Shown piece after piece: positions 15,072-63,919 of a stretch of DNA of 64,000 nucleotides. Made by a program: the position numbers and the translations under genes. Below the pieces are notes generated by a model that was not told the origin of the DNA, did no database searches, and worked only from the letters and a program-made list of their open reading frames with translations. The stretch spans positions 7,849 through 71,848 of the forward strand of contig CAZBSE010000003.1 of NCBI GenBank assembly GCA_964494385.1, given 5' to 3'. How positions within the stretch are numbered: position 1 is the first letter of the stretch; every line of letters begins with the position of its first letter. This DNA is from an uncultured Actinomycetota bacterium (GTDB taxonomy: Bacteria; Actinomycetota; Humimicrobiia; Humimicrobiales; Humimicrobiaceae).

Positions 15072-15101
15072 TTTAAAATTAAAGAAATAAATAAAAGGGA
15101 A

Positions 15102-15128: not shown

Positions 15129-15208
15129 TCGAAATTTTGAATAAATACAGAATTAAAATATAATTAAAACAAGAAAAATTTCTAAATCCCCGGAGGAGTC
15201 AATTAAAA

Positions 15209-16597: not shown

Positions 16598-16638
16598 TTA
16601 ATGCCAAAAAACAATACCGCGGGAAGATTTGGCGAAAT

Positions 16639-16654
16639 GTTTCACGTGAAACAA
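16639..16654. promoter_or_regulatory. parS: parS centromere-like site (perfect 16-bp palindrome TGTTTCACGTGAAACA), 43 nt upstream of the mnmG paralog start
   Basis: This is an exact match to the Firmicutes-type parS consensus tGTTtCACGTGAAAca. The parA and parB genes lie 4 kb downstream. Confidence 0.8.
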
Positions 16655-16697
16655 AAAATAATTTAATCGGAATTAAAAATAAGGGCATTAAGAGAAA

Positions 16698-17987: not shown

Positions 17988-18022
17988 AATGGAATATTGA
18001 GTAATTTAAGAAAGCGGAGATC

Positions 18023-19891: not shown

Positions 19892-20625
19892 ATTTGGAAA
19901 TCGATAATATTTTGAGATTGTCGTTTCAAAAACTTGAAATAAAATTTTCTGCAGATCAACTTGAACAGGTAAAAAAATATTTAAACCTGCTTTATAAATA
20001 TAATAAAATGATAAATCTTGTAGGAACTAAGGATAAGGAAGGCATACTCATAAGGCATTTTCTGGACTGTCTTTCAATATTAAAATATGAAGGATATTTT
20101 TTTTATGGTACTGATTTCGTAGAAAAAATCCTCGATGCAGGAACAGGTTCAGGGCTGCCGGGTATTCTTCTATCTATTTTTTTAGAGGACAAATTATTTT
20201 ACTTGCTGGATAAAACACAAAAGAAGATAGATTTTTTAAAGCTTATGGTAAAAGAGCTGGGACTTAAAAATGTTACAGTAGTCAAAGGGAGAGCAGAGGA
20301 GCTCTCAAAAATAAATTCTTACAGAGAAACTTTTGATATAGTTCTGGCAAGAGCTGTGGCGAAATTTAATATATTAAGCGAATTTGTAATTCCATTTTGC
20401 AGAATAAATGGTAGAATTATATTTTATAAAGGAAGAAATATTTTTAATGAATTGGAAGAGAGCAGAGGAGCCGTATTGAAACTCGGGGGGAAGGTAGATA
20501 GTTTGTTAGAGATAGAAGTTCCATATCTTAATGAGTTTAGAGCTTTTTTAATAATCAAAAAAACAGAGAAGTCTCCCGAGCAGTACCCCCGAAAATTTCA
20601 AATAATTAAGAAGAAGCCATTGTAG
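19888..20625 (+). CDS. rsmG: 16S rRNA (guanine527-N7)-methyltransferase RsmG (GidB)
   Basis: It carries the SAM-binding motif [12 protein letters not shown]. It overlaps the mnmG stop by 4 nt. Confidence 0.85.
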
Positions 20626-20758
20626 AGGGCATTGTATTAATGCATTATAATGTATAATTGTCTAAAAGCATAAATGGGGGGATGTGCTATTATTGATGAG
20701 GTTTATAGATATGGTTATCAAGAATAGAAAAACAAGAGAAACCATAAGGAAAGGATAT

Positions 20759-21520
20759 ATGGGGAGGATAATTGCTATTACAAATCAAAAAGGCGGTGTA
20801 GGGAAAAGTACAACTGCAGTAAATGTAGCTGCTTATATGAGCTCTTACGGCTATAAGACTTTGCTTATAGATCTTGACCCTCAGAGCAATTCAACCAGTG
20901 GATTGGGTGTAAATCCTGCTGATATCAAAGAATCGGTTTATGAAGTTTTAATACATGAAAGGGACCCCAATGAGATAATCTTAAATTCTTCATATAAAAA
21001 TCTTAAAATCCTGCCCTCTTCCATACAGCTTGCCGGTGCGGAAGTAGAACTGGTTGCCAGCTTAAAGAGGGAGTTCAAGTTAAAAGAAGCGGTAGATAAA
21101 ATCAAAAAGGATTATGATTTTATCCTGATTGACTGCCCGCCGGCTCTGGGACTTTTGACCATTAATGCTCTAACTGCAGCAAGAGAGGTCATTATTCCCA
21201 TACAATGTGAATATTATGCCCTGGAGGGTCTGGGCCAGCTTTTAAATACCATAAACCTGGTTAAAAAAAATCTTAATAATAAATTAAAGATAAAGGGAGC
21301 CATAATGACTATGTACGATCCAAGGATAAAACTGGCCGAGCAGGTAATCGAGGAAGTCAAAAATTATTTTTCGGAAAAGGTTTACAGGACAGTCATTCCC
21401 AGAAATGTGAGGCTAAGCGAGGCACCAAGTTATGGCAAACCTATAGTAGAATATGACCCTAATTGCAAGGGCGCAGAGGCCTATAGCAATTTTACGAAGG
21501 AAGTGATAAAAAATGGTTAG
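20759..21520 (+). CDS. parA: chromosome partitioning ATPase ParA/Soj
   Basis: It has the deviant Walker A motif KGGVGKSTTAVN. The track ORF starts at 20684, but the Met at 20759 gives the canonical length of about 253 aa. Confidence 0.85.
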   Translation: MGRIIAITNQKGGVGKSTTAVNVAAYMSSYGYKTLLIDLDPQSNSTSGLGVNPADIKESVYEVLIHERDPNEIILNSSYKNLKILPSSIQLAGAEVELVASLKREFKLKEAVDKIKKDYDFILIDCPPALGLLTINALTAAREVIIPIQCEYYALEGLGQLLNTINLVKKNLNNKLKIKGAIMTMYDPRIKLAEQVIEEVKNYFSEKVYRTVIPRNVRLSEAPSYGKPIVEYDPNCKGAEAYSNFTKEVIKNG

Positions 21521-26701: not shown

Positions 26702-28039
26702 TTATAGTATTGAAAGATAAGAATCCAGCTCATACTTGGAAACGTGGGTTCTGTACCTGTCCCATTCAATTTTTTTATTTTCTATAAATTTATTGAATAT
26801 ATGATCCCCAAGAGTTTCCCTTACTAACTTACTGCCTTCCATGAACTTTAATGCTTCAAGTAAATTGTCGGGAAGAGTATCTATGCCTGCTTCTTCTCTT
26901 CTCCCGGCATCCATCTCAAAGATGTTTTCTTCTATAGGTTCGGTAAGTTTGTATTTATTTTTTATACCTTCCAGACCGGACGCCAGCATTACGCTAAAGG
27001 CAAGGTAGGGATTGCAGGCAGGGTCAGGACATCTGAATTCTATTCTGGTCGATGTTTCCTTTCCAGGCTTATACATTGGTACCCTTACAAGGGTGGACCT
27101 GTTTCTCCTGGCCCAGGATATATAAACCGGAGCCTCATATCCGGGTACCAGCCTCTTATAAGAGTTAACCCATTGATTGGTTATAGCTACTATTTCTTTG
27201 CAATGCTTGAGTGTTCCGGCAATATAACTCTTACCTATATCAGACAGGTGATATTTATCACTTGCATTATAAAATGCGTTTTTATCTCCTTTGAAAAGAG
27301 ATTGGTGGGTGTGCATGCCGCTTCCGTTCTCCCCGAATAAAGGCTTGGGCATAAAAGTGGCATAAACGCCATTTCTGGTGGCAACTTCTTTTACTATGAT
27401 CCTGTAGGTCATGGCATTATCCGCCATAGTCAGGGCATCGGTATACCTTAAATCTATTTCATGCTGCGAAGGAGCCACCTCATGGTGAGAATATTCCACG
27501 CCGATTCCCATCGACTCTAGGTATAGCACAGTAGTTCTCCTCAGCTCACTGGCTACATCCAGAGTAGTCAGGTCAAAATACCCGCCTTTATCCAGTATTT
27601 CAGGATTGCCCTCATCACTTTTAAAGTAAAAGAACTCCAGCTCCGGCCCAACGTAAAAAGTATATCCCATATCTTTTACTTTTTTTAGCATTCTCTTGAG
27701 CACCCACCGCGGATCACCTTTAAAATTTGAGCCATCCGGTTCAAGTATATCGCAGAACATCCTGGCAACACCGTTTTCCTTATGGCTCCAGGGAAGTATC
27801 TGGAAAGTGCTGGGATCAGGCATAGCGATAACATCGCTTTCTTCTATTCTTGAAAATCCTTCGATAGAAGACCCATCAAACCCCATACCTTCCGATAATG
27901 CACCTTCAAGTTCTTCTACGGTAATGGCAAAACTTTTTAAAAAACCCTGAACATCCGTAAACCAGAATCTTATAAATTTTATGTTATTGTCATGGGCCTT
28001 TTTTAATACATATTCTTTCATTTCATCGTTTTTTCCCAT
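26702..28039 (-). CDS. glnA: glutamine synthetase type I (short GSI-alpha form)
   Basis: It carries the GS catalytic motifs KPLFGENGSGMHTHQS and NPYLAF. It is 445 aa long. Confidence 0.9.
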   Translation of the reverse strand: MGKNDEMKEYVLKKAHDNNIKFIRFWFTDVQGFLKSFAITVEELEGALSEGMGFDGSSIEGFSRIEESDVIAMPDPSTFQILPWSHKENGVARMFCDILEPDGSNFKGDPRWVLKRMLKKVKDMGYTFYVGPELEFFYFKSDEGNPEILDKGGYFDLTTLDVASELRRTTVLYLESMGIGVEYSHHEVAPSQHEIDLRYTDALTMADNAMTYRIIVKEVATRNGVYATFMPKPLFGENGSGMHTHQSLFKGDKNAFYNASDKYHLSDIGKSYIAGTLKHCKEIVAITNQWVNSYKRLVPGYEAPVYISWARRNRSTLVRVPMYKPGKETSTRIEFRCPDPACNPYLAFSVMLASGLEGIKNKYKLTEPIEENIFEMDAGRREEAGIDTLPDNLLEALKFMEGSKLVRETLGDHIFNKFIENKKIEWDRYRTHVSKYELDSYLSIL

Positions 28040-28218
28040 ACCATCACTTCCTTTAATCTTTTATTAAATATTATACTTATGTTCTGTTTCAGGTCTTTTT
28101 TTGGCGTTTAAGCAAATTCATAGATTGGAGAATATTATAACTTAATTTTTAGAAAAATTTATATAAAATATGTTAAATCTATGTTAAATATTTCTCCAAC
28201 CTCCTATTTAAAGCGGGT

Positions 28219-28560
28219 CTAGCCAATAGCTTCCTTTCCCTCTTCCCCGGTTCTGATCCTAATACATTTGGGAAGGTCCAGAACAAATATCTTACCGTCT
28301 CCAATATTACCGCTGTAGGCACCCTTTTTGATTGCCTCAATTGTCGGTTCAACAAAATCCTCGTTTACCGCTATTTCCAGTCTTAATTTTTTAATGAGAT
28401 TGACTTCGTGTATAACCCCCCTGTAAGTTTCAGTATAACCCTTTTGCTGGCCGCAGCCAAGAACGTTGGTTATGGTCATCTTGTATATTTCATTATCAAA
28501 TAATTCCTTTTTTACATCGGGCAGCTTATGCGGCTGAATCATGGCAATAATTAATTTCAT
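28219..28560 (-). CDS. glnK: nitrogen regulatory protein P-II
   Basis: It is 113 aa long with the T-loop [13 protein letters not shown] and the C-terminal GDGKIFV..IRIRTGE. It lies immediately downstream of amt. Confidence 0.9.
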
Positions 28561-28598
28561 TTTTACATCCTCCTTTGCTATGGTGGATTGATAATATT

Positions 28599-29858
28599 TT
28601 AATCGTTTTGAAATATTTGAAACCCGCTGTATGCTTCCATACCATGCTCTTCAATATCAAGCCCCTTTAGCTCTGTTTCCCTGGACACCCTGAGCCCCGT
28701 GGTCTTTTTAATCACAAAGAATAGCAGAAGCATCGTTCCGAAAGTCCAGGCAAATACACTAATTGTTCCTATAAACTGAGTAAGAAGCAGCTTACCCCCA
28801 CCGCCGAAAAACAGTCCATTTACTCCTTCAAATCCTGCAAGACTTGCATATTCCGACTGTGCAAAGAGGCCTACGAATAAAGTTCCGAAAAGGCCGCATA
28901 CACCATGGACGGAGATTGCTCCTACCGGATCGTCCACTTTAAATTTCTTATCAAGAACATCTATTGCTATGCTTACAATTATTCCGCATAGTACCCCTAT
29001 AATCATAGCGCTTATCGGGGATACTACCGCGCACCCTGCTGTAATTCCAACCAGTCCTGCCAGTGCACCGTTTAAGGTCATGGAAGCATCAGGCTTTTTA
29101 TATCTTATCCAGGAAAAGAACATAGCTGCTAATGCTGCCGCTGCAGCAGAAAGGGTAGTAGTCACGGTTATTGTGGATATAGCTGGACTTGTACCCGAAA
29201 GCGTACTGCCTGGATTAAACCCGTACCATCCAAACCATAAAATAAATACACCGAGTGCGGCAAGAGGTATATTATGACCGGTAATGGCATTTGAGGTTCC
29301 ATCCTTATTGTATTTTCCGAGTCTTGGTCCCAATATAATGGTACCGGCAAGACCGGCCCATCCTCCGACTGAATGAACCACGGTGGAGCCGGCAAAATCA
29401 ATCATACCCATATTTGCAAGCCATCCGCCTCCCCATATCCAGTGACCAACCACCGGATATATCAATGCGGTAATGAATACAGAGTAAATAAGATAGTTTT
29501 TGAATTTGATCCTTTCAGAAACAGCTCCCGAAACAATAGTAGCTGCAGTGGCGGCAAATACCGCCTGGAAAATCCAGAAGGCGAAGCTGGAGGTATCTGA
29601 CTGGCCCAGTATTTGAACAATAAAATTATCGGTTCCGATAAATCCGCCTGCATCGCTTCCGAACATCAGTCCATAACCAACCAGAAAAAATACAACGCAG
29701 CCGATACAAACATCCACCAGATTCTTCATAAGTATATTTACTGCATTCTTGGCTCTGGTGAAACCGGTTTCCACCATGGCAAAACCGGGCTGCATGAAAA
29801 ATACCAGAAATGCAGCAATCAGTGTCCATACGGTGTTCAGACTAATTGAAACATCCAT
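28599..29858 (-). CDS. amt: ammonium transporter Amt
   Basis: An 11-TM Amt/MEP family protein of 419 aa. It is paired with glnK. Confidence 0.9.
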
Positions 29859-29993
29859 TTTTTACCTGCCTTTGCTATATTTATAATTGGGTGTATTTTA
29901 CAGCATAAATTTTACTGTCAGGTTACATTTTTGTTAAAAGTATGTTAAATATCTCAGGGAGGGGGAGGGGGTGCATTAAAAGTTAATATCCGG

Positions 29994-30671
29994 CTAAATC
30001 TGGGTGGAAAACATATAGCCGACGTTTCTTACGGTTTTTAACATAAGGTTATAGGGGGGAGGGATTTTGGAACGGAGTCTTCTCATATGCACATCAACTG
30101 TCCTGCTGCCCCCGTAGAAGTCATATTCCCATACGGCGGAAAGCAGTTTATTCCTGCTTAGAACTTTATCCTGGTTTTGAAGAAGAAGTTTAAAAAGTTC
30201 AAATTCTTTAAAGGTCAGCTCTATCGGTTTTTGGTCGACGGACAACTCATACTTGTCCAGGTTCAGTATAAGGTTGTCCATCACAATGCTGTTTTTAGGG
30301 GGAAAAATTTTCCTTTTTAAAATAATCAACTCTGCCCTTGCGGCAAGTTCTCTTTCAAGCTGTGTGCAGAGAATAAAATCATCGAATTTGATTTCGCTTT
30401 CGATAAAAGATTCTATCTGGGAAGGTTCAAGTACGGCAAGCCTGGGGATATTATATTTGTTGGTATCAGTATTTGATTCTCTAAGCTGTGTATAATCCGG
30501 ATTGCTAAAATTGATGATATCTATTATCAAAAGAGCGGCAGTATCCGGCCGGGAAGAAAGGCCCTTTATTGTTTTTTCTATCCGCAGGGTAAATTTTTTC
30601 TTTTCCAGGATGCTATTTATTTTGTCTATATTTTTTTTATTTTTGGAATACAATAATATTACTTTTTTCAT
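29994..30671 (-). CDS. OmpR/PhoB-family winged-helix transcriptional regulator with a degenerate, atypical receiver domain (orphan)
   Basis: The C-terminal trans_reg_C domain reads LTFKEFELFKLLLQN...RTVDVHMRRLRSKI. The N-terminal receiver lacks the acidic DD pair (MKKVILLYSKNKK) and has no adjacent histidine kinase. Confidence 0.65.
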   Translation of the reverse strand: MKKVILLYSKNKKNIDKINSILEKKKFTLRIEKTIKGLSSRPDTAALLIIDIINFSNPDYTQLRESNTDTNKYNIPRLAVLEPSQIESFIESEIKFDDFILCTQLERELAARAELIILKRKIFPPKNSIVMDNLILNLDKYELSVDQKPIELTFKEFELFKLLLQNQDKVLSRNKLLSAVWEYDFYGGSRTVDVHMRRLRSKIPPPYNLMLKTVRNVGYMFSTQI

Positions 30672-30938
30672 ATTTACGCAGTTTCTATTTAAACAATAAA
30701 TTATAAAAGTTTAAATTTCTAATATATTATAAAGTAATTTGTATCATTATAGAAATGTAAATTCTTGCTGCCGGTCTAGAGAATTTAACTGTATTGGCTA
30801 TGAAATACAATTTAATATCTATATCTAAAATAACCGCAGACCTATTTACAGCGAATATAAAACATATGTATTTGCCTAATAGGTATATCGGAGCATGTAT
30901 TTGTTTTTGGTTATGGTTATGATAAAATATATAGTGTG

Positions 30939-30952
30939 TTGCGCAAGCGCTT
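30939..30952. promoter_or_regulatory. candidate LacI-type operator TTGCGCAAGCGCTT, made of overlapping palindromes TTGCGCAA and AAGCGCTT, about 33 bp upstream of the LacI regulator start
   Basis: An identical 14-mer recurs at 34687..34700, just downstream of a consensus promoter. Confidence 0.4.
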
Positions 30953-30984
30953 ACTTAAAATATATAGATTTTTAGGAGCAGGCA

Positions 30985-31995
30985 ATGGTCAATTACAATG
31001 ATATAGCAAAAATAGCAAAAGTGTCTCCCACTACGGTTTCACATGTAATTAATGAAACCAGGTTTGTTATGCCCGAGACAAAAAAAAGGGTTCAGGAAGC
31101 GATGAAGAGATTAAAATACCAGCCCAATCTGCTTGCCAGGAGTCTTGCCACCGGAAAAACGCACACTATCGGATTGGTTATTTCTGATATTAGAAACCCG
31201 TTTTATCCGGAACTTGTTCAGGGAGTGGAGGAACTAGCAGTGAAGAATGACTACAATGTGTTTTTATGCAATACGGATTATGATATTGAAAAAGGCTTGA
31301 AATCTATAGGAGCTTTAATCAAGAGAAAAATAGACGGGATAATAGTAGCTTCCAGTCAGGTGGACAGTACTATAATAAACCAGCTTGTAGGCACAGACGT
31401 AAATTTTGTACTGGTAGATTGGGGTAAAAGAAATGTTGGAGCAGACAGCCTGTATTTTGATTACAGGGTTGGTATGGCAGAAGCTGTTTCATATTTAATT
31501 TCTCTTAACCACAGGACGATTTATTTTATCAGCGGCCCGAAAACGCTAAAAACATCAAAAATAAGAACAAGGAATTTTATTGAAGCGGTAGAAAAACATA
31601 AAAGCATTAATATGGATTATAAAATATTCGAGGGGGACCATAAAATAGAAGGCGGCTGCAGGACTGTTCGAAAAATATTAATAGAAAAAAAGCTCCCCAC
31701 GGCAATTATTTGTTCAAATGACCTTACAGCTATTGGAGCGATGAAAACTTTTGAGGCCAGCGGTATTAAAATTCCTAATGATATGTCTGTTATTGGCCTG
31801 GACAATATATCATTAACTGAAATAGTTTCTCCCTCACTGACGACCATAGAGCTGGAAAGGTACAGAATAGGTAAAACCGCAATGAAACTGCTGCTGAATA
31901 GAATTAAAGATAAAGAGTTGCCCAAACAGACATGTGTTTTTAAGACGAAGCTGGTTATAAGAGAAAGTACTTCTGCAAGAAGGACAGTTAGTTAA
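30985..31995 (+). CDS. LacI-family transcriptional regulator
   Basis: It has an N-terminal HTH (NDIAKIAKVSPTTVSHVINE) and a periplasmic-binding-protein-like effector domain. Confidence 0.85.
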   Translation: MVNYNDIAKIAKVSPTTVSHVINETRFVMPETKKRVQEAMKRLKYQPNLLARSLATGKTHTIGLVISDIRNPFYPELVQGVEELAVKNDYNVFLCNTDYDIEKGLKSIGALIKRKIDGIIVASSQVDSTIINQLVGTDVNFVLVDWGKRNVGADSLYFDYRVGMAEAVSYLISLNHRTIYFISGPKTLKTSKIRTRNFIEAVEKHKSINMDYKIFEGDHKIEGGCRTVRKILIEKKLPTAIICSNDLTAIGAMKTFEASGIKIPNDMSVIGLDNISLTEIVSPSLTTIELERYRIGKTAMKLLLNRIKDKELPKQTCVFKTKLVIRESTSARRTVS

Positions 31996-32212
31996 TAAAG
32001 CAGTGAACCGGCTCATCTTATGTTTACCGCTGTAATTATTTTAAACTTTAAATCAATTAAAATTTAATGGGAAATAAGTCGAGTGGGAGAATCAATGCTT
32101 GATGGATAAAAAACTGAATCTGGGAAAAAGTCCAATAAGGCTTACAAAATCGTTATCTTGTAGTGTTGAAAAATCGGACGGGGATTAATTTTATAAAGAA
32201 TTAAAAAGGGTA

Positions 32213-33367
32213 ATGTTTATGAATAGCAGGGAGCGTATAATTGCCACACTGAATCATAAGGAGCCGGACTGCATCCCCCTTGATCTGGGCGGAACAATTG
32301 TTTCTTCTATTACTAAAAATTCTTACATCAGTTTGAAGAAGTATTTAAATATGAAAGTTGGAGATATAAAGATACTGGACCACTCCCAGCAACTGCCTTA
32401 TCTCGACGAAGAGCTTCTGCAGAAATTGAATGTTGATATACGGATGGTAAAAACAGATTACGATAGTAACGCTGAGCAGAAATATACAGAGAAAGGGGAT
32501 TATTACTATTACTATGATCGGTGGGGAGCAAAACTCCGTATGCCGAAAGAAAACGGCCATTATTTTGATTATATTGGATTTCCGATTAATGACATATGCA
32601 TGGAAGAATTAAAAAATTATAGATGGCCGGAATTGGATGATCAAGAGTTAATTTTTAAACATAAACAGAAGGCAAAATATCTTTACGAAAATACTGGTTA
32701 CGCTTTAGCAGGAACTGCGGTGTTTGGCGGAGGAGTGTTTGAACAGCCGGCAAGGATAATGGGTATGGAGCGTTTTCTTACCAGTATTGCCCTTAATGAA
32801 AAATTTGCAGATACAGCCATGGAGAAAGTAGCTGAACTGTATATTGAAAATTGCAGGTGCTATCTTGACGAAATAGGTAAATATATTCAGGTATTTATTT
32901 ACTGGAATGATATAAGCGGCCAAACGGGGCCATTAATATCACCAAAAGTGTATAGGCGTTTAATAAAGCCTAAAGACAAGAGAATAATAGAGATGGTAAA
33001 ATCTAAAACCGATGCTAAATTCTTTTACCATTGTTGCGGGGCGATAAGAGAATTTATTCCTGATTTTATTGAAATAGGAGTTGATATTTTAAATCCGGTA
33101 CAAGTTTCGGCCGCAGGTATGGGGACAGCAGGTTTAAAGAAAGAATTTGGAAATGACATGAATTTCTGGGGAGGGGGTTGTGATACCCAGCATATTCTTC
33201 CATTTGGTACGCCGGCTGAAGTTAGAGAGGAAGTTAAAAGAAGGATAAACGATCTTGCGGAAGGCGGCGGGTTTGTTTTTAGTGCCGTTCATAATATTCA
33301 GGATGAAGTTCCACCCAAAAATATAATGGCAATGTTAGAAGTCTTAGAGGAATTGAAAAAGTATTAG
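32213..33367 (+). CDS. uroporphyrinogen decarboxylase (URO-D)/MtaA-CmuA family protein, copy 1
   Basis: The URO-D-like fold is recognisable (LNHKEPDCIPLDLGG ... DILNPVQ). An HCCG motif (FYHCCGAIRE) is reminiscent of the Zn-binding His/Cys of methylcobamide methyltransferases. Confidence 0.75.
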   Translation: MFMNSRERIIATLNHKEPDCIPLDLGGTIVSSITKNSYISLKKYLNMKVGDIKILDHSQQLPYLDEELLQKLNVDIRMVKTDYDSNAEQKYTEKGDYYYYYDRWGAKLRMPKENGHYFDYIGFPINDICMEELKNYRWPELDDQELIFKHKQKAKYLYENTGYALAGTAVFGGGVFEQPARIMGMERFLTSIALNEKFADTAMEKVAELYIENCRCYLDEIGKYIQVFIYWNDISGQTGPLISPKVYRRLIKPKDKRIIEMVKSKTDAKFFYHCCGAIREFIPDFIEIGVDILNPVQVSAAGMGTAGLKKEFGNDMNFWGGGCDTQHILPFGTPAEVREEVKRRINDLAEGGGFVFSAVHNIQDEVPPKNIMAMLEVLEELKKY

Positions 33368-33417
33368 TTAAAAAATATTGATGAAATGATATTTAAAGAA
33401 TGTAAAAGGTAGAAGCA

Positions 33418-34512
33418 ATGATAAGCCCAAAAGAAAGAGTGCTGGCAGCTTTAAATCATATAGAGCCTGATAGGGTACCCAGGCTGGCAAGTTTCACTCC
33501 GGAATTTGCTGCTGAACTGCGCAGGCATTTTAAAATAAAGGGTGAATTGTTTAATCCCCATGGCGGTATTAATCATAAACTTGAGATTAAATTAGGAAAC
33601 GATATTCTACTCACTGCTCAGGGGTTTGCTAATTCTTATTACCAGAGACTTGACAGAGATTATACTGATGAGTGGGGAGTCTTGTGGAAAATTATTGAAT
33701 ACGGAACAAAAAATGGTTCGGGGAGATATACTGAAATATCAGGAAATCCCTTAAAAGATGATAAATCTATAGAAAACTACATCCCGCCTGACCCTGCTAT
33801 TGAATCCCGCTATGAACCTTCAAGAAGGCTGATAAAAGAGTTTGGGAAGGAATATCCCGTTATGGGTGTAATTGTTACTACTATATTTGAGGCAGCCTGG
33901 GCTTTAAGGGGACTGGATAAGCTTATGATGGATTTTATTATAAATGAAGACCTTGCAAATAAGATTTTAGATATTCCTTTTAAATACCATCTTTATGCAG
34001 GTAAAAAACTTACCAGCCTGGGAGTAGATATTATATGGACCGGCGATGACGTAGGGGGACAGAGAGGAATGTTGATTTCACCTGAGATGTGGCGGAGGTA
34101 CCTAAAACCCAGAATGGAAAAATTATATTCTGAATTAAAATCTATTAATCCCGGCCTTAAGATTGCTTATCATTCAGATGGCAATATTTATCCCATAATA
34201 GATGAACTGGTGGAAATAGGACTTGATATTTTAAATCCGGTTCAACCAAAGTGTATGGATCCGAACTATTTAAAGAAGCGCTATGGGAAGAATTTAAGCT
34301 TCTGGGGCACCATTGATATTCAAGAAACCCTTCCCTTTGGAACTCCGGAACAAATAGAGCATGAAGTAAAGAACAGAATTAAAAATATGGGACCAGGAGG
34401 CGGATTTATAATCAGTCCGACCCATCACATGCAAATTGATACATCTATAGGTAATTTTTTTACTTTCTGGAATGCTGTAGAAAAGTACGGAAAGTATCCT
34501 ATTGTTATTTAA
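33418..34512 (+). CDS. uroporphyrinogen decarboxylase (URO-D)/MtaA-CmuA family protein, copy 2 (tandem paralog)
   Basis: It is homologous to copy 1 (LNHIEPDRVP ... DILNPVQ), but the HCCG position reads YHSDGN, so no Cys is present there. Confidence 0.75.
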   Translation: MISPKERVLAALNHIEPDRVPRLASFTPEFAAELRRHFKIKGELFNPHGGINHKLEIKLGNDILLTAQGFANSYYQRLDRDYTDEWGVLWKIIEYGTKNGSGRYTEISGNPLKDDKSIENYIPPDPAIESRYEPSRRLIKEFGKEYPVMGVIVTTIFEAAWALRGLDKLMMDFIINEDLANKILDIPFKYHLYAGKKLTSLGVDIIWTGDDVGGQRGMLISPEMWRRYLKPRMEKLYSELKSINPGLKIAYHSDGNIYPIIDELVEIGLDILNPVQPKCMDPNYLKKRYGKNLSFWGTIDIQETLPFGTPEQIEHEVKNRIKNMGPGGGFIISPTHHMQIDTSIGNFFTFWNAVEKYGKYPIVI

Positions 34513-34647
34513 ACAGATTAAATAATTGAAAATGTTTTTAGTTTTTATTCAGAATGTTTATTGCGGTAAGGGTGAGTTGAGTGAGGGGTTCTTAAAAAAT
34601 TGGAGAATATAAGATTTACGGGATTTTGAATAAAACAATTCTAAAAC

Positions 34648-34700
34648 TTGACATGGCTTATTTTTTTTTATATTATAAGTAAGCACTTGCGCAAGCGCTT
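34648..34700 (+). promoter_or_regulatory. near-consensus sigma-70 promoter (TTGACA-17-TATTAT) immediately followed by the operator 14-mer TTGCGCAAGCGCTT. It drives a leader of about 345 nt ahead of the SBP gene.
   Basis: The cttgacatggcttatttttttttatattataagtaagcacttgcgcaagcgcttg stretch places the operator within about 12-25 bp after the -10 element (a classic repressor position). Confidence 0.45.
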
Positions 34701-35045
34701 GTTAGGCCATTAGTTTTATACGGTTAAGATTTTAAATCAATTATAGAGGAGTTCGTAAGTCTAACTTTTAAGAACGGCTAATCCCAAAAAATTTTTTACA
34801 AAATATAAAAATATTAAAGTTACATAAGCAACAAAAAGAAGAAAATACTTTAAAGGGAGGTGACCGGTATTATATAGAAATAGATTTGCAAAGGGAGAAT
34901 AACATAGTCTTGAATTGAAGTCATAACTAAGCAAATCTTAAAAAAATCCATAAGAGATAATGTAGAAATTATTGTATGGAAGGAGGTGACTTATAGAAGT
35001 AAGAATGTTTGTTTTCTATATTTGGTATTTTAACAAAGAGAGGAT

Positions 35046-36104
35046 TTGAAAATGAAAAAATCATTATTATGGATAGTAGTATTGATATTAAGTATATCAA
35101 TGGTTGCGGCTTTTTCATTATATGGCTGTAAAGAAGAAGCCGTAGCTGAAGAGGAAGCAGCAGTAGAGGAAGAAGCCGTAGCTGAAGTAACAGGTGCTGC
35201 AGAAGGAATAGTAATATATGCTCAGATGGGTGGATCAGCCGGTGACCCGAGTACTCTGCCCCGACAGAATGGCGCAGCAGAAGCAGCAGAGCAGTGGGGA
35301 TGTGAAATAATTTATCAATTTTCAGAATGGCAGTCTGATAAAATGGTTTCACAATTTAAAGAAGCTGTTGCAGCTGAGCCCGATGGCATTATTATAATGG
35401 GGCACCCCGGAGTTGAAGCATTTAGAACTTCTGTTGAAGAAGCTGAAGGGAAAGGGATTATAGTAACTGCCAATAATACACCTCTTCCTGAATTTGAAGT
35501 AACATACGGAGGTAACGGATTTGGTTATGCAGGCGCAGACCTTTTCGAAGGTGGATATGTAACAGGCCAGCAAATTATTGCTGCAGGAAATCTTCAGGCA
35601 GGAGATAGGGTTCTTGAATATGGACTGAGGGCACAACCTGAACGTGGTAAGAGTGACGAAGGAGTTTATCAAGCTTTCTTGGATGCCGGCATGGAAGTTG
35701 ATTATATTGAGATTACTCCTGAAGTAGATGCCGATGCTACTCTGTGCATCCCGATCCTAACTGGATACCTGGCTTCTAATCCTGACTGTAAAGCTATAGG
35801 TACACAGCACGGAAATGTAACTTCAACAATGGGCGAAGTTGTAACAGCAGCAGGACTTGGAGCAGATGATATAGTTGTTGGTGGAATTGATCTTTCGCCA
35901 AAAACAGTTGAAGCGCTGCAAGAGGGGTATGTTGATCTGGTATTAGATCAGGTACTGTACCTGCAGGGATATCTTCCGGTTAGTCAGATTTGTTTGTCCA
36001 AATTGTACGGAATACCAGGACTTCATATAAACACTGCCAGTGGAGTTGTAACTTCTGAATCAATTACAGATATACTTTCACTGATTGATGAAGGTATTAG
36101 ATAA
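35046..36104 (+). CDS. ABC transporter substrate-binding lipoprotein, periplasmic-binding-protein type 1 (sugar/RbsB-like fold)
   Basis: A signal peptide and lipobox LYGC are followed by an EA-rich linker and a PBP1-like domain. Confidence 0.7.
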   Translation: MKMKKSLLWIVVLILSISMVAAFSLYGCKEEAVAEEEAAVEEEAVAEVTGAAEGIVIYAQMGGSAGDPSTLPRQNGAAEAAEQWGCEIIYQFSEWQSDKMVSQFKEAVAAEPDGIIIMGHPGVEAFRTSVEEAEGKGIIVTANNTPLPEFEVTYGGNGFGYAGADLFEGGYVTGQQIIAAGNLQAGDRVLEYGLRAQPERGKSDEGVYQAFLDAGMEVDYIEITPEVDADATLCIPILTGYLASNPDCKAIGTQHGNVTSTMGEVVTAAGLGADDIVVGGIDLSPKTVEALQEGYVDLVLDQVLYLQGYLPVSQICLSKLYGIPGLHINTASGVVTSESITDILSLIDEGIR

Positions 36105-36199
36105 GTCTTGGGTTAAGATTGATTTATAGAGACGAAAGGCCTATGTTTGTTTTAAAAAGAGACCTTTAAAGCCAGCATAGGTAAAAAGTATGGTGTTAG

Positions 36200-36260
36200 A
36201 ATTGCCTACCAAGAGAAATAGTATAATATAGGAAAGTAATATAGCTCTTGGTAGGCAATT
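36200..36260. repeat. perfect 16-bp inverted repeat AATTGCCTACCAAGAG / CTCTTGGTAGGCAATT with a 29-nt AT-rich spacer containing TATAAT. It is intercistronic between the SBP and ATPase genes.
   Basis: Both arms were read directly from the sequence and are exact reverse complements. Confidence 0.7.
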
Positions 36261-36323
36261 AAATAAAAGACGGTTGGCAAGTGCTATTAGGGATTAATAA
36301 ATAGAAGAAAGGCTTTAAGGGAC

Positions 36324-37127
36324 ATGATGATGAATAATTCTAAAAATTTGGTGGAAATGAAAAATATCCACAAGTGTTTTGGGAAAGTCATAGCACTTAA
36401 AGATGTAAATTTTCAAGTTGGCAACAATGAAATTGTAGGATTAATAGGTGACAACGGTGCCGGTAAATCAACTCTGATAAAAATACTTTCAGGGGTTTTT
36501 CCTCAAACCAGTGGAGAGATATACATACGAGGGAAGAAAATATCCACAAGGAGATACTCGGTTAGAAAAGCTCATGAGATGGATATCGAAACTGTATATC
36601 AGGAAAAAGCTTTGGGAGAAAAACAATCCTTGTGGAGAAATATTTTTATCGGCAGACAAATTTGTAATTTTTTTGGCTTTATTAATATAAAAAAAGAAAA
36701 AGAAGAAACTGACAAGGTTATGAAAGAGTTAATTGGTTTTAGAGGAGCAGGTGTTTCAGCGGAATCGTGTGTTGGTAGATTATCAGGCGGGGAAAGGCAG
36801 GGCATAGCTATAGGCAGAGCGATGTATTTTAATGCCAACCTGATAATACTGGATGAACCAACTGCAGCATTATCATCAAAGGAAGTAGCAAAGGTCCTGA
36901 ATTTTATACGAAGAATAAAAGAAAGCGGGAGATCCTGTATTTATATAACTCATCACATCTCTGATACATATTCAGTTTCAGACAGGTTTGTTTTCATAGA
37001 CCGTGGAGAAATAATAGGAGAATATAAAAAGAGTGAAATATCATTGGAAGAACTCACTGAAAAATTACTTTTGGTATCAGCCGGGGATTTGGGAAAGGAG
37101 ATGATCAATGAACATCAGAAACAGTAA
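36324..37127 (+). CDS. ABC transporter ATP-binding protein (single nucleotide-binding domain)
   Basis: It has the Walker A motif GDNGAGKST, the signature LSGGERQ and the Walker B motif ILDEPT. It is 267 aa long. Confidence 0.85.
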   Translation: MMMNNSKNLVEMKNIHKCFGKVIALKDVNFQVGNNEIVGLIGDNGAGKSTLIKILSGVFPQTSGEIYIRGKKISTRRYSVRKAHEMDIETVYQEKALGEKQSLWRNIFIGRQICNFFGFINIKKEKEETDKVMKELIGFRGAGVSAESCVGRLSGGERQGIAIGRAMYFNANLIILDEPTAALSSKEVAKVLNFIRRIKESGRSCIYITHHISDTYSVSDRFVFIDRGEIIGEYKKSEISLEELTEKLLLVSAGDLGKEMINEHQKQ

Positions 37128-38085
37128 AATAAGTATTCTTGGCAGCAAAGGTTTTAGAACTTATGCTGTTGTTTTGGTATATATAGTTCTTATGGGAGTA
37201 TTTATGATTACGGCCCCAAGAGCTTTTCTTGACTATAAAATTTATATGGCTTTTCTGTCAACAATTCCATTTTCACTGGTTATGGCTCTGGGTTTAACGT
37301 TTGTTATTATAGCCGGGGAAATTGATCTTTCTTTCACCTCGGTGATGGCTTTTTCAGGATTTATATTTACATACACTTTTATCCATACGGGAAGTACTAT
37401 ATTGGCATTTATAGCCAGTTTAACTTCAGGAGCAATTGCGGGTTTTATAAATGGTATTATAGTTGCCAAAGTAAAGGTACCATCAATTATTGCAACCCTG
37501 GGTACACAATTTTTTTGGGCTGGGCTGGCGGTAGTTCTTTCTTCGGGACGTTCGTTAATTGTTACCGAGATTAGGCCATCTTTTATGTATAAAATTTTTG
37601 TCGGCAGAATAGGAGGTATTGTTCCTGCACAGGCAGCATGGGCATTCGGGCTGGCAATCATTTTAGGCTTTATTCTAAATAAACATAGATTTGGCGAAAG
37701 TGTAATGTTCATTGGAGATAATAGAGATACGGCAAAAATGATGGGTGTAAATGTGGATAGAACTTTAATACAGATATTTATGCTTTCCGGAGTTTTGGCT
37801 GCATTTGCTTCAGTGTTATTAGCATGTGAGATGGTGACATGGTGGGCCACTCAAGGACCGGGATATTTACTAATAACCATAGCGGCAGTTTTTATAGGCG
37901 GTACATCAATATACGGAGGAGAGGGAACAATATTTGGAACTGTGGTAGGAGCTTTTATTGTAGGAAGCATAACTGCAGGAATTACAGCTTCCGGTGTTGG
38001 TGGATTCTGGACACAGCTGGTGGTTGGCCTGGTACTACTTGTGGCAGTTTTTATTAATACGTTTATAAGCAGGCGGAGAACTTAA
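37108..38085 (+). CDS. ABC transporter permease (RbsC/LivH-like BPD_transp_2 family)
   Basis: It has about 9-10 TM helices and overlaps the ATPase gene end by 20 nt. Confidence 0.8.
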   Translation: MNIRNSKISILGSKGFRTYAVVLVYIVLMGVFMITAPRAFLDYKIYMAFLSTIPFSLVMALGLTFVIIAGEIDLSFTSVMAFSGFIFTYTFIHTGSTILAFIASLTSGAIAGFINGIIVAKVKVPSIIATLGTQFFWAGLAVVLSSGRSLIVTEIRPSFMYKIFVGRIGGIVPAQAAWAFGLAIILGFILNKHRFGESVMFIGDNRDTAKMMGVNVDRTLIQIFMLSGVLAAFASVLLACEMVTWWATQGPGYLLITIAAVFIGGTSIYGGEGTIFGTVVGAFIVGSITAGITASGVGGFWTQLVVGLVLLVAVFINTFISRRRT

Positions 38086-38252
38086 TCTGAAAACTTTTAA
38101 AATTTTTACAGGAAATTACTGACAGTACTGTAATTATTTTTAGTTTATTCATTAATTTAGTTTTATTAATTTACAGCCAAGTAAAAGATTATAAAAGTAA
38201 GAGAAATATAAAAATTTAACGTTACGGCGAAGGAGATATAAGAATAAAAAAC

Positions 38253-39482
38253 ATGGGAAAATTAGAGATCTGTAATAATTTTAAAAAATTAAATGATTTA
38301 TTTGTTAAAATGTTTATGGAGGGGGGCCGGAAGAAAGGAGGTTCTTTTAGAAAAGAAGAACTTATAAATATTTTATCTCCCGGAAGGGTAAATATAATTG
38401 GAGAGCATACGGATTATAATTTAGGGCTCTCTATAAATGCTGCCATAAATAAATACATATTTATAGCAGGATTTAAAAATAATTTGGATTATATAGAAGT
38501 TTTTTCAAAATACTTAAATGATTCCAATAAATTCCTGCTGGGTGATATTACTTTTGATAAAAATGTAAGCTGGATAAATTATATAAAAGGAGTTTTAAAA
38601 GAGTATGCTTGGAATGGCCATAGAATAGGTGGATTTAATATGGTTGTTGACAGTGATCTGCCTATAGCTGCCGGTATGAGCTCATCGGCTTCTCTTGAGG
38701 TTGGAGTCGCAAAACTTATTGAACAGCTTTTTGATTTGAAGACTGATAGAAGGAAAGTGGTAAAATATTGTAACAGCGCCGAAAATAATTTTGTGGGAGT
38801 AAACTGTGGATTCATGGATCAATTTGCTGTAACCTATGGGAAGAAAAATAATGTAATCTATTTAAATTTTAAAGACCTTTCTTATGAATATATTCCTTTT
38901 AATCTTGAGGATAATTTAATCTTAGTTATTAATTCTAAAGAAGAAAGAAATCTGGCGAATACTGAATATAATAAAAGAAGAAAAGAATGCAATGATGCAG
39001 TTCAGCTAATAGTCAAAATAACAAAAAATAAAAACATTAAATCCCTATCGGATATCAGTCCGGATATGCTGTCTAAGCTAAAAGATAAAATGCCTGAGAA
39101 ATTGTTTAAAAGAGTTAAGCATGTTGTAACGGAAAATAATAGAGTCTTATTAGCAAAAGAATATCTGCTTAAGGGAGATATTGAAAAATTGGGTAAAGTA
39201 TTATTTGAATCACATGACAGCCTGAGATATGATTATGAAGTATCAACAGAGAAGCTTGATTATCTGGTTGATGAGATGAAAAAAATCAAAGGAGTTTATG
39301 GCGGAAGGTTAATGGGAGCAGGGTTTGGGGGCAGCATTATCAGTATTGTAAAGAGAAGCGAAATTGATATTATTACTGATGTAATAGGCAGTAAGTTTTT
39401 AAAAAAATTCAATATTTCTCCTGATTTTATAGAATGTTTGTTCTCGGACGGAACAAGAAGAGTGAAATTAAAAGATTCATGA
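38253..39482 (+). CDS. galK: galactokinase
   Basis: The galactokinase signature PGRVNIIGEHTDYN is present, with the GHMP motif PIAAGMSSSASLEV. Confidence 0.85.
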   Translation: MGKLEICNNFKKLNDLFVKMFMEGGRKKGGSFRKEELINILSPGRVNIIGEHTDYNLGLSINAAINKYIFIAGFKNNLDYIEVFSKYLNDSNKFLLGDITFDKNVSWINYIKGVLKEYAWNGHRIGGFNMVVDSDLPIAAGMSSSASLEVGVAKLIEQLFDLKTDRRKVVKYCNSAENNFVGVNCGFMDQFAVTYGKKNNVIYLNFKDLSYEYIPFNLEDNLILVINSKEERNLANTEYNKRRKECNDAVQLIVKITKNKNIKSLSDISPDMLSKLKDKMPEKLFKRVKHVVTENNRVLLAKEYLLKGDIEKLGKVLFESHDSLRYDYEVSTEKLDYLVDEMKKIKGVYGGRLMGAGFGGSIISIVKRSEIDIITDVIGSKFLKKFNISPDFIECLFSDGTRRVKLKDS

Positions 39483-39717
39483 AAGAGATTGGGAAAGGAA
39501 AATTTAAGTTAAATAAAAATGTAGGAGCAGGGATTAAAAGCAATGGTAAAAAAGACAGTAGAGATAAACAATCCAGCAGAAATGAATCTTTAAATAGTAA
39601 AGAATGCAAAGAAGGCTTAAACCTGAAAAAGAAAGTGATAATAAAAAATGACGGAAGGTATTTGATATATTACGATTTTCAGGATAATTCCGGATAGAAC
39701 AAGGGAGGCATAAAGTA

Positions 39718-40695
39718 CTGGAACTAAGATATGACCCTATAAAAAATATGCTAGTAGCTGTTGCCACAAAAAGACAGGACAGAACTTTCCACCCGCCCAA
39801 GGATTTTTGTCCACTTTGCCCGACAAAGAACGATAAAATAAAAACAGAAATTCCGGCAAGTAATTATGATATCGTGATTTTTGAAAACAAGTTTCCGACT
39901 TTTAGCGAAAATCCTGACAGTGTAGATAATAAAAAATTAAATATCGGAAGCGATTTTCAATATGAGCTGAAAGAGTCCAGAGGTATCTGTGAAGTAGTCT
40001 GCTACACTCCAAACCATAATATGTACCTGGAAGATTTACCGTTGGAAAAGATAAACAACCTTATAAATGTGTGGAGAGATCGATATTTGGTCCTTGGAGG
40101 GAAGAAATTTATAAAATATATTTTAATTTTTGAAAATAAAGGAAAAGAAATAGGAGTTACTCTTTCGCATCCACATGGTCAGATATATGCATTTTCATAT
40201 ATACCACCGATAATTTTAGAAGAGTTAAGGTCGTCAAAAAATTTTTACCTGAAAAATAAAAAATGCATTCACTGCAGGATAATTGAAAGGGAACTAAGAA
40301 ACAGGATCAGAATTATTACCTCTAATAAAGATTTTATTGCATTTATCCCTTTTTACGCCAGGTGGCCATATGAGGTTCACATTTATCCCTTGAGGCACCT
40401 TGAGAGTCTGTGCCAGTTGAATGATAGAGAAATAAATTCTTTATCTTCAGTGATTAAAGAGCTTATAAGTAAATATAATAAATTGTTTAATTTTAGGATG
40501 CCTTATGTGATGGTTATTCATCAAAAACCAACGGATAATAGAAGTTATGACTATTATCATTTTCATTTCGAATTCTACCCACCATATAGAACCAAAGATA
40601 GACTTAAATACTTGGCAGGATGTGAATTAGGGGCGGGAACATTTTTAAATGATACTCTGCCGGAGGAAAAAGCTGAGGAATTAAGAGATTGTTGA
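39718..40695 (+). CDS. galT: galactose-1-phosphate uridylyltransferase (HIT-like type 1 GalT). A CTG start is proposed and the start codon is uncertain.
   Basis: It has the HPHGQ active-site motif and the CPLCP zinc motif. The conserved N-terminal ELRYDPIKN lies upstream of the first ATG at 39748. A strong SD (AAGGGAGG) ends 9 nt before the CTG at 39718, and there is no in-frame ATG, GTG or TTG upstream. Confidence 0.75.
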   Translation: MELRYDPIKNMLVAVATKRQDRTFHPPKDFCPLCPTKNDKIKTEIPASNYDIVIFENKFPTFSENPDSVDNKKLNIGSDFQYELKESRGICEVVCYTPNHNMYLEDLPLEKINNLINVWRDRYLVLGGKKFIKYILIFENKGKEIGVTLSHPHGQIYAFSYIPPIILEELRSSKNFYLKNKKCIHCRIIERELRNRIRIITSNKDFIAFIPFYARWPYEVHIYPLRHLESLCQLNDREINSLSSVIKELISKYNKLFNFRMPYVMVIHQKPTDNRSYDYYHFHFEFYPPYRTKDRLKYLAGCELGAGTFLNDTLPEEKAEELRDC

Positions 40696-54747: not shown

Positions 54748-54758
54748 GAGCCAGCAGG

Positions 54759-55154: not shown

Positions 55155-55189
55155 CTAAAAAAAACAAGTACTTATTTATATTTACACAA

Positions 55190-63289: not shown

Positions 63290-63919
63290 GTGGCAGAATA
63301 TCAGGAACTGGCAGATGCTATTATAAAGGGCGATAATATAGCAAGCAAAGATATTGCGCAGAAACTGGTCGATGAAAATATGTCACCTGTGGAAATTCTA
63401 GATAACGGGCTGGTGCCCGGGATGGATATGGTGGGTAAAAAGTTTAAAAATAATGAGATTTACCTGCCTGAAGTATTAATAGCGGCAAGAGCCATGAAAT
63501 CTGCAATGGAAGTCATAAAACCAATGCTCACAGAATCGGGCATAGAGACCAAAGGAAAGATAATTATAGGCACGGTACAGGGCGATGTCCATGACATCGG
63601 TAAAAATCTGGTGGGCATGATGCTTGAAGGAGGGGGATATACTGTAATTGACCTGGGAGCCGATGTCCCCCATGAAAAATTTTTAGGTGAGATAAAAAAG
63701 AACAGTGTAAAACTGATAGGCCTGTCGGCACTTCTTACCACTACAATGATAGGCATGAAGACGGTAATTGGCATGCTTAAAGAAGATAAGGAGACTTCCG
63801 ATGTAAGAGTTATGGTCGGCGGCGCGCCGCTGACACAGGAATTTGCTGATTCCATAGGCGCTAACGGTTATGCTCCTGATGCAACCGGTGCCGTGGAGCT
63901 TGCCGGCAAGCTGCTTTGA
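63290..63919 (+). CDS. methyltransferase cognate corrinoid (B12-binding) protein, MtaC/MtbC/MttC-like, GTG start
   Basis: An N-terminal B12-binding-2 cap helix domain is followed by a Rossmann B12 domain with the DxHxxG motif (GDVHDIGKN). Confidence 0.8.
   Translation: MAEYQELADAIIKGDNIASKDIAQKLVDENMSPVEILDNGLVPGMDMVGKKFKNNEIYLPEVLIAARAMKSAMEVIKPMLTESGIETKGKIIIGTVQGDVHDIGKNLVGMMLEGGGYTVIDLGADVPHEKFLGEIKKNSVKLIGLSALLTTTMIGMKTVIGMLKEDKETSDVRVMVGGAPLTQEFADSIGANGYAPDATGAVELAGKLL

Follow-up and report, generated by a model that had tools for sequence, protein, structure and literature searches.

The locus described here lies in a 64-kb window of DNA (64,000 nucleotides of contig CAZBSE010000003.1, GenBank assembly GCA_964494385.1) from an uncultured actinomycetotal bacterium. 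Between 30.9 and 40.7 kb, its plus strand carries, in this order, the genes for a LacI-family repressor (lacI), for two tandem proteins of the uroporphyrinogen decarboxylase (URO-D) superfamily that we call UD1 and UD2, for the substrate-binding protein (SBP), ATPase and permease of an ABC importer, and for GalK and GalT. A sequence-only reading of this DNA had placed two URO-D paralogs between a LacI regulator and an ABC importer, an arrangement that we confirm, with every gene it described found at the coordinates it had given; galK and galT, which directly follow the permease gene on its 3′ side, were absent from it, as were the two copies of a LacI-type operator. The features on which the argument draws are the following.

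30939..30952, no strand assigned: operator-like site O1, TTGCGCAAGCGCTT, about 35 bp upstream of lacI, an exact 14-mer common with O2
30985..31995, plus strand: LacI-family repressor (Pfam LacI, Peripla_BP_1 and Peripla_BP_3), just 5′ of position 32213
32213..33367, plus strand: UD1, URO-D superfamily, 384 aa (PF01208, 5.8e-20); the probable start at 32219 would give 382 aa
33418..34512, plus strand: UD2, URO-D-superfamily paralog, 364 aa (PF01208, 2e-25)
34648..34676, plus strand: sigma-70-like promoter TTGACA-17-TATTAT of the transporter operon, predicted from a match to 11 of the 12 consensus positions
34681..34700, no strand assigned: putative operator O2, AAGCACTTGCGCAAGCGCTT, a 20-bp near-perfect palindrome directly 3′ of the promoter
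35052..36104, plus strand: SBP, a lipoprotein of the PBP1/Peripla_BP_4 type, from a CUT2-like importer (start given by the open reading frame tool, 35046)
36324..37127, plus strand: ABC ATPase with one nucleotide-binding domain (NBD), 267 aa, one ABC_tran domain
37108..38085, plus strand: ABC permease, BPD_transp_2, AraH/RbsC-like, its gene overlapping that of the ATPase by 20 nt
38253..39482, plus strand: galactokinase GalK (TIGR00131, 303.4 bits against a cut-off of 226.65; GalKase_gal_bdg signature)
~39718..40695, plus strand: galactose-1-phosphate uridylyltransferase GalT (TIGR00209, 193.8 bits against a cut-off of 102.1)
63290..63919, plus strand: orphan MtaC-type corrinoid protein (CP) with B12-binding_2 and B12-binding domains and a DxHxxG motif read from the sequence

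UD1 and UD2 are true paralogs (28% identity over the full length, E = 4e-44), and the motifs noticed earlier, YHCCG in UD1 and YHSDG in UD2, are upheld. A 533-bp intergenic region separates UD2 from the SBP gene, and the SBP sequence shows a lipobox, LYGC, with a Glu/Ala-rich linker behind it. GalK and GalT both score above the equivalog-level cut-offs for enzymes of the Leloir pathway; GalE and GalM were not found adjoining the window locus. The probable start of galT is the CTG at 39718, 9 nt past a strong ribosome-binding site, AAGGGAGG, and the N-terminus read from it, LELRYDPIKN, agrees with that of the ortholog in the related locus L010, MLELRFHPIKN, whereas the ATG chosen by the open reading frame tool (39748) lies 10 codons short.

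The repressor reaches no NCBIfam equivalog cut-off, and its orthologs in the syntenic loci L010 and L076 are 73–85% identical. Its LacI domains, together with the palindromic sites at promoters, mark it as a predicted LacI-family repressor with a palindromic operator. The O2 palindrome is unique within the window (0 expected by chance), and the 14-bp operator core has three matches there against 0.01 expected by chance. This core is also common to the orthologous loci L010, L014 and L076; in L010, related sites precede both lacI and the SBP gene, and L076 has one next to lacI. Because the operators are shared and kept in orthologous loci, they tie the lacI and transporter promoters together. 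O1 would probably mediate autoregulation of lacI and, given co-transcription, possibly control of UD1–UD2 as well; no such site was found upstream of UD1 or galK. The predicted LacI regulon thus looks like lacI(-UD1-UD2) plus the transporter operon.

By sequence and by fold, the best solved relative of both UD1 and UD2 is the methylcobamide:coenzyme M methyltransferase MtaA (PDB 4ay7), which places both on the methyltransferase side of the superfamily. UD2 finds it at 1.6e-9 with a single sequence and at 3e-13 with a profile, UD1 at 3.7e-4 with a profile. Foldseek searches with the AF2 models (pLDDT 88.6 for UD1 and 94.4 for UD2) matched 4ay7 at E = 2.9e-13 and 5.5e-17, respectively, with HemE next and then MetE. 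The NCBIfam matches of both proteins are exclusively to the MtaA/MtbA/CmuA models, none of them to HemE, and the scores for TIGR01463 and PRK06252 (44.7 and 47.2 bits for UD1; 64.8 and 76.0 for UD2) stay far below the cut-offs of 235.4 and 244. On this sequence evidence, UD1 and UD2 are distant relatives of MtaA outside the curated family, and perhaps work as other relatives of MtaA do. Each family has more than 6,500 matches in a 90%-clustered search, with homologs 55–80% identical across Atribacterota, Actinomycetota, Chloroflexota, Planctomycetota, Bacteroidota and others (55–58% being retained between phyla), and a search of 1.84 billion library representatives gave 1,050 relatives of UD1 (each standing for a 50%-identity cluster, E <= 1e-30). 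All named homologs of the two proteins are annotated merely as members of the ‘uroporphyrinogen decarboxylase’ family.

Aligned to the LHICG and PGCG motifs of MtaA, UD1 reads YH273-C-C275-G and AVH360N, and UD2 reads YH252-S-D254-G and PTH336H. The three Zn-ligand positions of MtaA correspond to H273/C275/H360 in UD1 and H252/D254/H336 in UD2, residues that are invariant in family alignments of 48 and 49 sequences. Within the HCCG of UD1, only H273-x-C275 is conserved and C274 varies, while the Asp of the UD2 HSDG, located at the Zn-Cys position of MtaA, is invariant. Among a more diverse set of 147 UD1 relatives (representatives of 50% clusters, 36–51% identical), H273, D233 and G276 occur in all 147 and H360 in 142, and position 275 is Cys in 114 and Asp in 33, with nothing else found there. 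Such a strict alternation of Cys and Asp beside an invariant His and an invariant Asp is the pattern expected of a metal ligand. The difference between HCCG and HSDG noted in the sequence-only reading therefore does not mean that UD2 has lost the metal site, since the Cys-to-Asp swap recurs family-wide; UD1 and UD2 would instead carry two variants of one putative metal site. Further conserved residues (Q237, N294, Q297, D324, Q326, N361, Q363 and N370) add Asn, Gln and Asp side chains that would suit a polyhydroxylated ligand.

The nature of the substrate is indicated by the transporters. UD1 lies beside three kinds of sugar transporter, namely CUT2 ABC systems with a single NBD, those with a double NBD, and RhaT-type permeases, and because the module is tied to all three, its substrate is very probably a sugar. 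The earlier proposal of an imported substrate is supported here, the tie to an imported sugar being strong. In the window, the SBP and the permease have the features of a CUT2 importer (such as RbsABC, XylFGH, MglABC or AraFGH), with a PBP1-type SBP, a BPD_transp_2 permease, and AraH, RbsC, XylG and MglA as best models, although the SBP is remote and the curated cut-offs are not reached. Unlike the fused double NBD of about 500 aa in these importers, the ATPase here has a single NBD of 267 aa, and its alignment to the XylG, RbsA and MglA models (500 aa) is confined to their N-terminal halves, which makes the system a single-NBD variant. Its orthologs in other UD loci are 41–51% (SBP, across phyla) and 50–54% (ATPase) identical. 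Substrate inference from SBP homology was dropped because the solved SBPs are too remote (best 5dte, 3.7e-12).

The sequence-only reading had held that the substrate cannot be inferred, yet the catabolic genes narrow it. galK accompanies UD genes in three arrangements (the window, L010 and L011), and the genes downstream in L010 encode an isomerase, AraB (744 bits vs 428), AraD (353 vs 257), GalK and GalT. Loci from Chloroflexota add isomerases, FGGY kinases, aldolases and GalK-like GHMP kinases inside the UD cluster, and sometimes a GDSL esterase. D-galactose and L-arabinose have a common galacto ring configuration, so that galK/galT here, and araB/araD or both sets in the closest relatives, point to a galacto-configured O-methylated sugar. 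Decarboxylation of galacturonate to arabinose was considered as a source of the recurring Ara and Gal genes and dropped, being in our judgement chemically implausible for the fold and at odds with CUT2 SBPs, which typically bind neutral sugars.

To place the module in context, 80 UD1 loci from a scan of species-representative genomes were scored by tblastn with the window proteins and those of the locus L003; 51 of them extend at least 4 kb from UD1 in both directions. Of these 51, 40 have a UD2 ortholog (at least 45% identity) next to UD1, about 37 have the same single-NBD ABC system as a neighbour, 30 a third URO-D paralog (UD3, with an HSCG motif and the most MtaA-like of the three), and 29 LacI. 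An MtaC-type CP lies within 6 kb of UD1 in 24, where we roughly estimate the chance of finding one within 6 kb of a given gene at 1–2%. Moreover, the CP occurs in at least seven gene orders, sometimes with a DUF1638 gene: UD1-UD2-UD3-CP, UD1-CP-UD2, UD1-DUF1638-CP-UD2 (L003, L054 and L069), UD2-CP-UD1-UD3, a divergent CP-UD2 facing UD1(-DUF1638), UD1-UD2-CP (L141), and an arrangement with the CP about 6 kb off (L170). Repeated rearrangement with the CP linkage kept argues for functional coupling. The earlier suggestion of corrinoid-dependent methyl transfer gains synteny support from these 24 loci; the window, however, has no CP in cis, and its link to such a protein is by orthology. Genetic evidence connects DUF1638 with B12-dependent methionine synthesis, and it shares the distribution of a RamA-like activase (PMC5764234). 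A pterin-binding methyltransferase (MT) II was found in only 4 of the 80 loci, in 3 of them within MetH-like open reading frames of 1,250–1,320 aa that also carry a B12-binding match. With MT II so rare, the second methyltransferase would have to be one of the URO-D paralogs if the clusters are complete methyl-transfer systems.

Two further observations were made in these loci. L173 (ENA ERZ27256843 k141_3280588; UD1 75% identical), compared with positions 26702–40695 of the window, has the module at the same chromosomal position, 3′ of glnA, PII, amt and a Trans_reg_C regulator, but it is without LacI and has an isomerase, a ROK regulator, AraB and AraD in place of galK–galT; L173 and the window share a constant UD1-UD2-ABC core, around which the LacI or ROK regulator and the 3′ catabolic genes have been exchanged. 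The regulator common to both is encoded in the window at 29994–30671 (minus strand), between amt/glnA and the lacI locus, as an OmpR-type winged-helix protein with Trans_reg_C at residues 148–221 and an N-terminal half without a receiver-domain model match at E <= 1e-5. Separately, in 23 of the 80 loci the genes for a short glycyl-radical enzyme (~700 aa) and its activase stand right after UD1-UD2-UD3-CP (L023 at 14010–16879, L003 at 14982–17937 and 21 more loci). The enzyme has PFL-like and Gly_radical domains, its best NCBIfam match is PFL2-3 (318 bits vs 678) with no equivalog, and a later dehydratase step in this sugar pathway is a possible role.

The CP encoded at 63290..63919 scores 203.6 bits for TIGR02370, against a cut-off of 215.3. 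The sequence-only reading was right to call it a methyltransferase-type corrinoid protein, but the protein does not head a methyltransferase cluster beyond the window edge, where that reading thought more might lie. In every recovered contig, it is flanked by a UDG gene upstream and a riboflavin operon downstream, both on the minus strand, and this orphan position is kept in the relatives L088 and L090 (76–80% identical). Past 63919, where genes for MtaB/MttB-type methyltransferases and RamA activators had been thought worth seeking, the contigs L005–L007 show ribH, ribBA, ribE and ribD on the opposite strand and then unrelated genes, and methyltransferases past the window edge were dropped as a candidate. 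No MtaB/MttB-type substrate:corrinoid methyltransferase and no RamA/RACo was found in the window or within ~8–10 kb past either end; the upstream extension (L171 and L172) has a xanthine permease, a transglutaminase and a hydrolase. The window CP is 43–52% identical to the CPs inside UD clusters, the latter being 56–71% identical to the CP of L003, values compatible with orthology across phyla. The orphan is a candidate trans-acting partner of UD1 and UD2.

A relative of this CP (69% identical) is found on metagenome contig Ga0307421_1000124 (L096, 2160–12467), where a glycoside-utilisation locus holds a full corrinoid demethylase-like set: a URO-D-type methyltransferase (HCCG), an MFS_2/GPH permease, GH3, ROK, the CP, DUF1638, a pterin-binding MT II and RACo, in this order. 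Such a set implies that related organisms run complete corrinoid demethylase-like systems in carbohydrate loci. A methylated glycoside and a methoxylated aglycone are equally conceivable as its methyl donor.

Taken together, we read the locus as a system for O2-independent, corrinoid-dependent O-demethylation of a galacto-configured methyl sugar, the product of which would enter the Leloir pathway; in our judgement, this reading has an even chance of being correct. The module would serve LacI-repressed uptake and pre-processing, most plausibly of an O-methyl-D-galactose. The lipoprotein SBP and the single-NBD ABC transporter would import the methyl sugar, upon which cytoplasmic UD1 and UD2 would act through metal sites formed by His/Cys/His (UD1) and His/Asp/His (UD2), plus the invariant Asp, and lined with Asn, Gln and Asp. 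The metal of UD1/UD2 would polarise the methyl ether oxygen, and Co(I), bound in an MtaC-type corrinoid protein encoded in trans, would accept the methyl group; the orphan at 63290 is so far the sole candidate for that protein. A second methyltransferase, either one of the paralogs or an enzyme encoded elsewhere, would hand the methyl group on to a one-carbon (C1) carrier, and the freed galactose would enter the Leloir pathway via GalK and GalT. In this scheme, UD1 is a candidate metal-dependent methyl-sugar:corrinoid methyltransferase and UD2 a candidate second methyltransferase, acting as MT1 or MT2. Gene content, paralogy, the conservation of putative ligand positions, the operator-like sites, the synteny counts and the Leloir enzymes are shown by the sequences themselves, whereas metal binding, corrinoid use, the methyl ether substrate, the MT1/MT2 roles, the methyl acceptor and a part for the orphan CP are inferred. 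For its corrinoid component, the scheme draws on the conserved putative ligand positions and on gene neighbourhoods of another phylum rather than on genes adjacent to UD1 and UD2.

Several observations weigh against this scheme. The window UD locus has no corrinoid protein in cis, the orphan lying 25 kb away; tblastn of the window for RACo, Pterin_bind, DUF1638 and UD3 gave nothing better than E = 0.04, and no RACo, pterin-binding MT2, DUF1638 or UD3 was found within ~8–10 kb of the window ends. Every locus with a CP in cis belongs to Chloroflexota, and there are none among the ~17 non-Chloroflexota loci sampled (from Atribacterota, Actinomycetota, Planctomycetota, Desulfobacterales, Halanaerobiales, Spirochaetota and Bacteroidota). 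The nearest relatives of the window are likewise without one (L076, L010, L009, L011 and L173), including L076, in which UD1, UD2 and LacI are 78%, 88% and 85% identical to those of the window, so that the corrinoid link of this Atribacterota-like locus depends on orthology. Furthermore, the closest homologs of the window CP (63–80%) are not beside UD genes, L088 and L090 being the syntenic orphans and L095 and L096 carrying it with RACo and other components; only more distant homologs (45–50%) adjoin UD genes, as in L141 and L151. UD1 and UD2 are also separable: UD1 is alone in 10 of the 51 loci, it stands by itself beside an ABC or RhaT transporter in L001, L002 and L174, and UD2 is alone in L168 and L169, accompanied in L168 by LacI, an aldose epimerase (GalM) and the same ABC system. 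In the window itself, a 167-bp AT-rich gap between the permease gene and galK leaves their co-transcription putative. Methyl transfer of this kind has precedent for methanol, activated by the Zn of MtaB, and for aryl methyl ethers, whereas we found no biochemical precedent for a corrinoid methyltransferase cleaving an alkyl (sugar) methyl ether, and full-text literature searches returned no report of corrinoid- or cobalamin-dependent sugar demethylation. To our knowledge, no member of the UD1 or UD2 family has been experimentally characterised.

Many of these points would be accommodated if UD1 and UD2 were corrinoid-independent, metal-dependent TIM-barrel enzymes performing some other step on a galacto-configured sugar (isomerisation, epimerisation, removal of another substituent, or a MetE-like direct alkyl transfer), with the UD3–CP pair of Chloroflexota as a separate add-on. 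We regard this as unlikely, though as the most serious competitor. It would explain why a CP, an activase and MT2 are missing in cis from the window and from every non-Chloroflexota locus, and why UD1-only and UD2-only loci each come with just a transporter; it is also compatible with the commonest Chloroflexota order, in which the CP adjoins UD3 rather than UD1 or UD2, with an identity to MtaA of merely 12–22%, and with a URO-D superfamily that has corrinoid-independent members too, MetE and HemE among them (PMC10418091). Yet at least 10 loci have the CP between UD1 and UD2, or next to UD2 without UD3 between (CP-beside-UD loci: L003, L016, L034, L042, L046, L048, L053, L054, L058, L069 and L141), the URO-D superfamily has no known sugar-modifying activity, and the epimerase and glycosidase matches reflect generic TIM-barrel similarity (TM-score ~0.35). 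Less probable still, in our view quite improbable, is that the chemistry is corrinoid-dependent but the donor is not methyl-galactose, with galK and galT as mere neighbours. The donor could then be some other small, polar cargo of CUT2-type transporters, for example an O-methyl-inositol (pinitol or rhizopine-like), an S-methyl sugar, or a methylated pentose or deoxyhexose. The best NCBIfam match of the SBP, to the rhizopine (3-O-methyl-scyllo-inosamine) SBP, speaks for such a donor, albeit at 76 bits against a cut-off of 420, as do the variable downstream genes (ara-type in L173; an isomerase, FGGY kinase, aldolase or glycyl-radical enzyme in Chloroflexota) and the lack of an operator linking galK/galT to the transporter. 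Against it, UD genes are accompanied by galK, alone or with galT, in the window, L010 and L011, and at least five more loci (L026, L038, L039, L044 and L057) have GalK-like GHMP kinases within their UD clusters; no inositol (iol) or methylthioribose-salvage genes were seen in the loci examined.

An assignment of UD1 and UD2 to HemE, or to close functional equivalents in tetrapyrrole biosynthesis, is suggested by the name of PF01208 (URO-D), by the public annotations and by the HemE structures that rank just behind MtaA in fold searches, and the proteins have in common with HemE the PF01208 domain, the fold and a conserved His at the ‘GHG’ position. It is nevertheless effectively refuted and was dropped, the sequence-only reading having been right to set both paralogs apart from HemE. 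Neither protein matches TIGR01464, the HemE equivalog model (cut-off 302.95 bits), at E <= 0.01; PF01208 is covered only at profile positions 140–345 (UD1) and 97–346 (UD2), leaving out the N-terminal third, in which the substrate-binding motif of HemE lies; and the YASG of HemE is replaced by YH-x-(C/D)-G, HemE in turn being without the H-x-C/D ligands. The best relative is MtaA, the paralogs are in tandem (three in some homologous loci), and their context is LacI, a sugar ABC system and galKT rather than tetrapyrroles, with no hem, cob or other tetrapyrrole-biosynthesis genes among the annotated open reading frames of the window. We consider this assignment virtually impossible.

Corrinoid-dependent demethylation, as proposed here, would resemble several known systems without coinciding with any of them. 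With MtaA/MtbA (4ay7, TIGR01463), UD1 and UD2 have in common the URO-D-type TIM barrel, the H-x-C-G motif (kept in UD1), conserved potential ligands at all three Zn-ligand positions, and Chloroflexota orthologs beside MtaC-type CPs. The putative ligand sets nevertheless differ from the His/Cys/Cys of MtaA, UD1 has an extra beta-rich insertion at about residues 54–122 in the AF2 model, and both proteins sit in a sugar-import and not a methanogenesis setting, where they would likely take a methyl group from an O-donor instead of delivering one to a thiol. The aryl methyl ether O-demethylases of acetogens and Desulfitobacterium consist of MT I, a corrinoid protein, MT II and an activating enzyme; systems related to them feature in PMC3727330 and PMC8630106. 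These O-demethylases correspond to the proposed system in the attack of Co(I) on a methyl ether, the transfer of the methyl group to a C1 carrier, an MtaC-like CP and a substrate-specific MT I, but the substrate proposed here is an aliphatic sugar ether with a poorer leaving group. Moreover, of the four components, the window offers candidate methyltransferases and an orphan CP, with MT II and the activase not in cis. The P450 6-O-methyl-D-galactose demethylase of aerobic marine bacteria (PMC6292453, PMC10033563) does the same job, removing a methyl ether from a polysaccharide-derived sugar so that galactose can be catabolised. However, it belongs to an unrelated family, is oxidative and O2-dependent, and releases formaldehyde, whereas the UD system would be O2-independent and keep the methyl group on a cofactor. 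The cluster treated in PMC10418091 was rejected as an equivalent, as that paper makes no mention of sugar, LacI or DUF1638.

Elsewhere in the window, 8746–21520 is the chromosomal replication-origin region, with dnaN (8746–9855, minus strand), dnaA (10156–11520, minus strand), yidC, mnmE, mnmG, rsmG and parA, a gene for a 429-aa GIDA-family protein that is possibly TrmFO-like, and a switch in the sign of the GC skew at ~10–12 kb. With oriC ~20 kb away, the UD locus would belong to the core chromosome and not to a mobile element. An operon at 54361–60442 encodes a membrane complex resembling complex I or energy-converting hydrogenases, including Oxidored_q6, a 495-aa Complex1_49kDa protein, NADHdh, a 2x[4Fe-4S] ferredoxin and several unannotated polytopic membrane proteins. 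Finally, the genes for a LarC-family nickel-insertion protein (PF01969, 452 bits) and a 277-aa protein are divergent (coordinates 51989–53164 and 51025–51858); the latter has no Pfam match at E <= 1e-5 but by eye is like a LarE-type PP-loop ATPase, and the pair may be nickel-pincer cofactor machinery.

Sugar methyl ethers are thought to protect polysaccharides against degradation, and the sugar demethylase found in our literature searches was the O2-dependent P450 only. Methylated sugars appear recalcitrant in the gut and in the ocean, and are reported to accumulate in seawater (PMC6292453). Somewhat more tentatively than for the locus itself, we suggest that UD1 and UD2 (together with UD3 in Chloroflexota) represent a widespread, unrecognised class of Zn/corrinoid methyltransferases that cleaves aliphatic monosaccharide methyl ethers without O2. 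If true, an O2-free, B12-dependent route would explain the removal of methyl groups from sugars by anoxic communities, and anaerobes of sediments, soils and guts could use O-methyl-galactose, -arabinose, -fucose and -rhamnose, with the methyl group passing into C1 metabolism instead of being lost as formaldehyde. Corrinoid chemistry would be extended from aryl ethers, methanol, amines and thiols to carbohydrate ethers, linking glycan degradation to the C1 and cobamide economy, and thousands of ‘uroporphyrinogen decarboxylase’ genes would need to be re-annotated. Both the substrate class and the architecture would then be new, and the ecological reach considerable.

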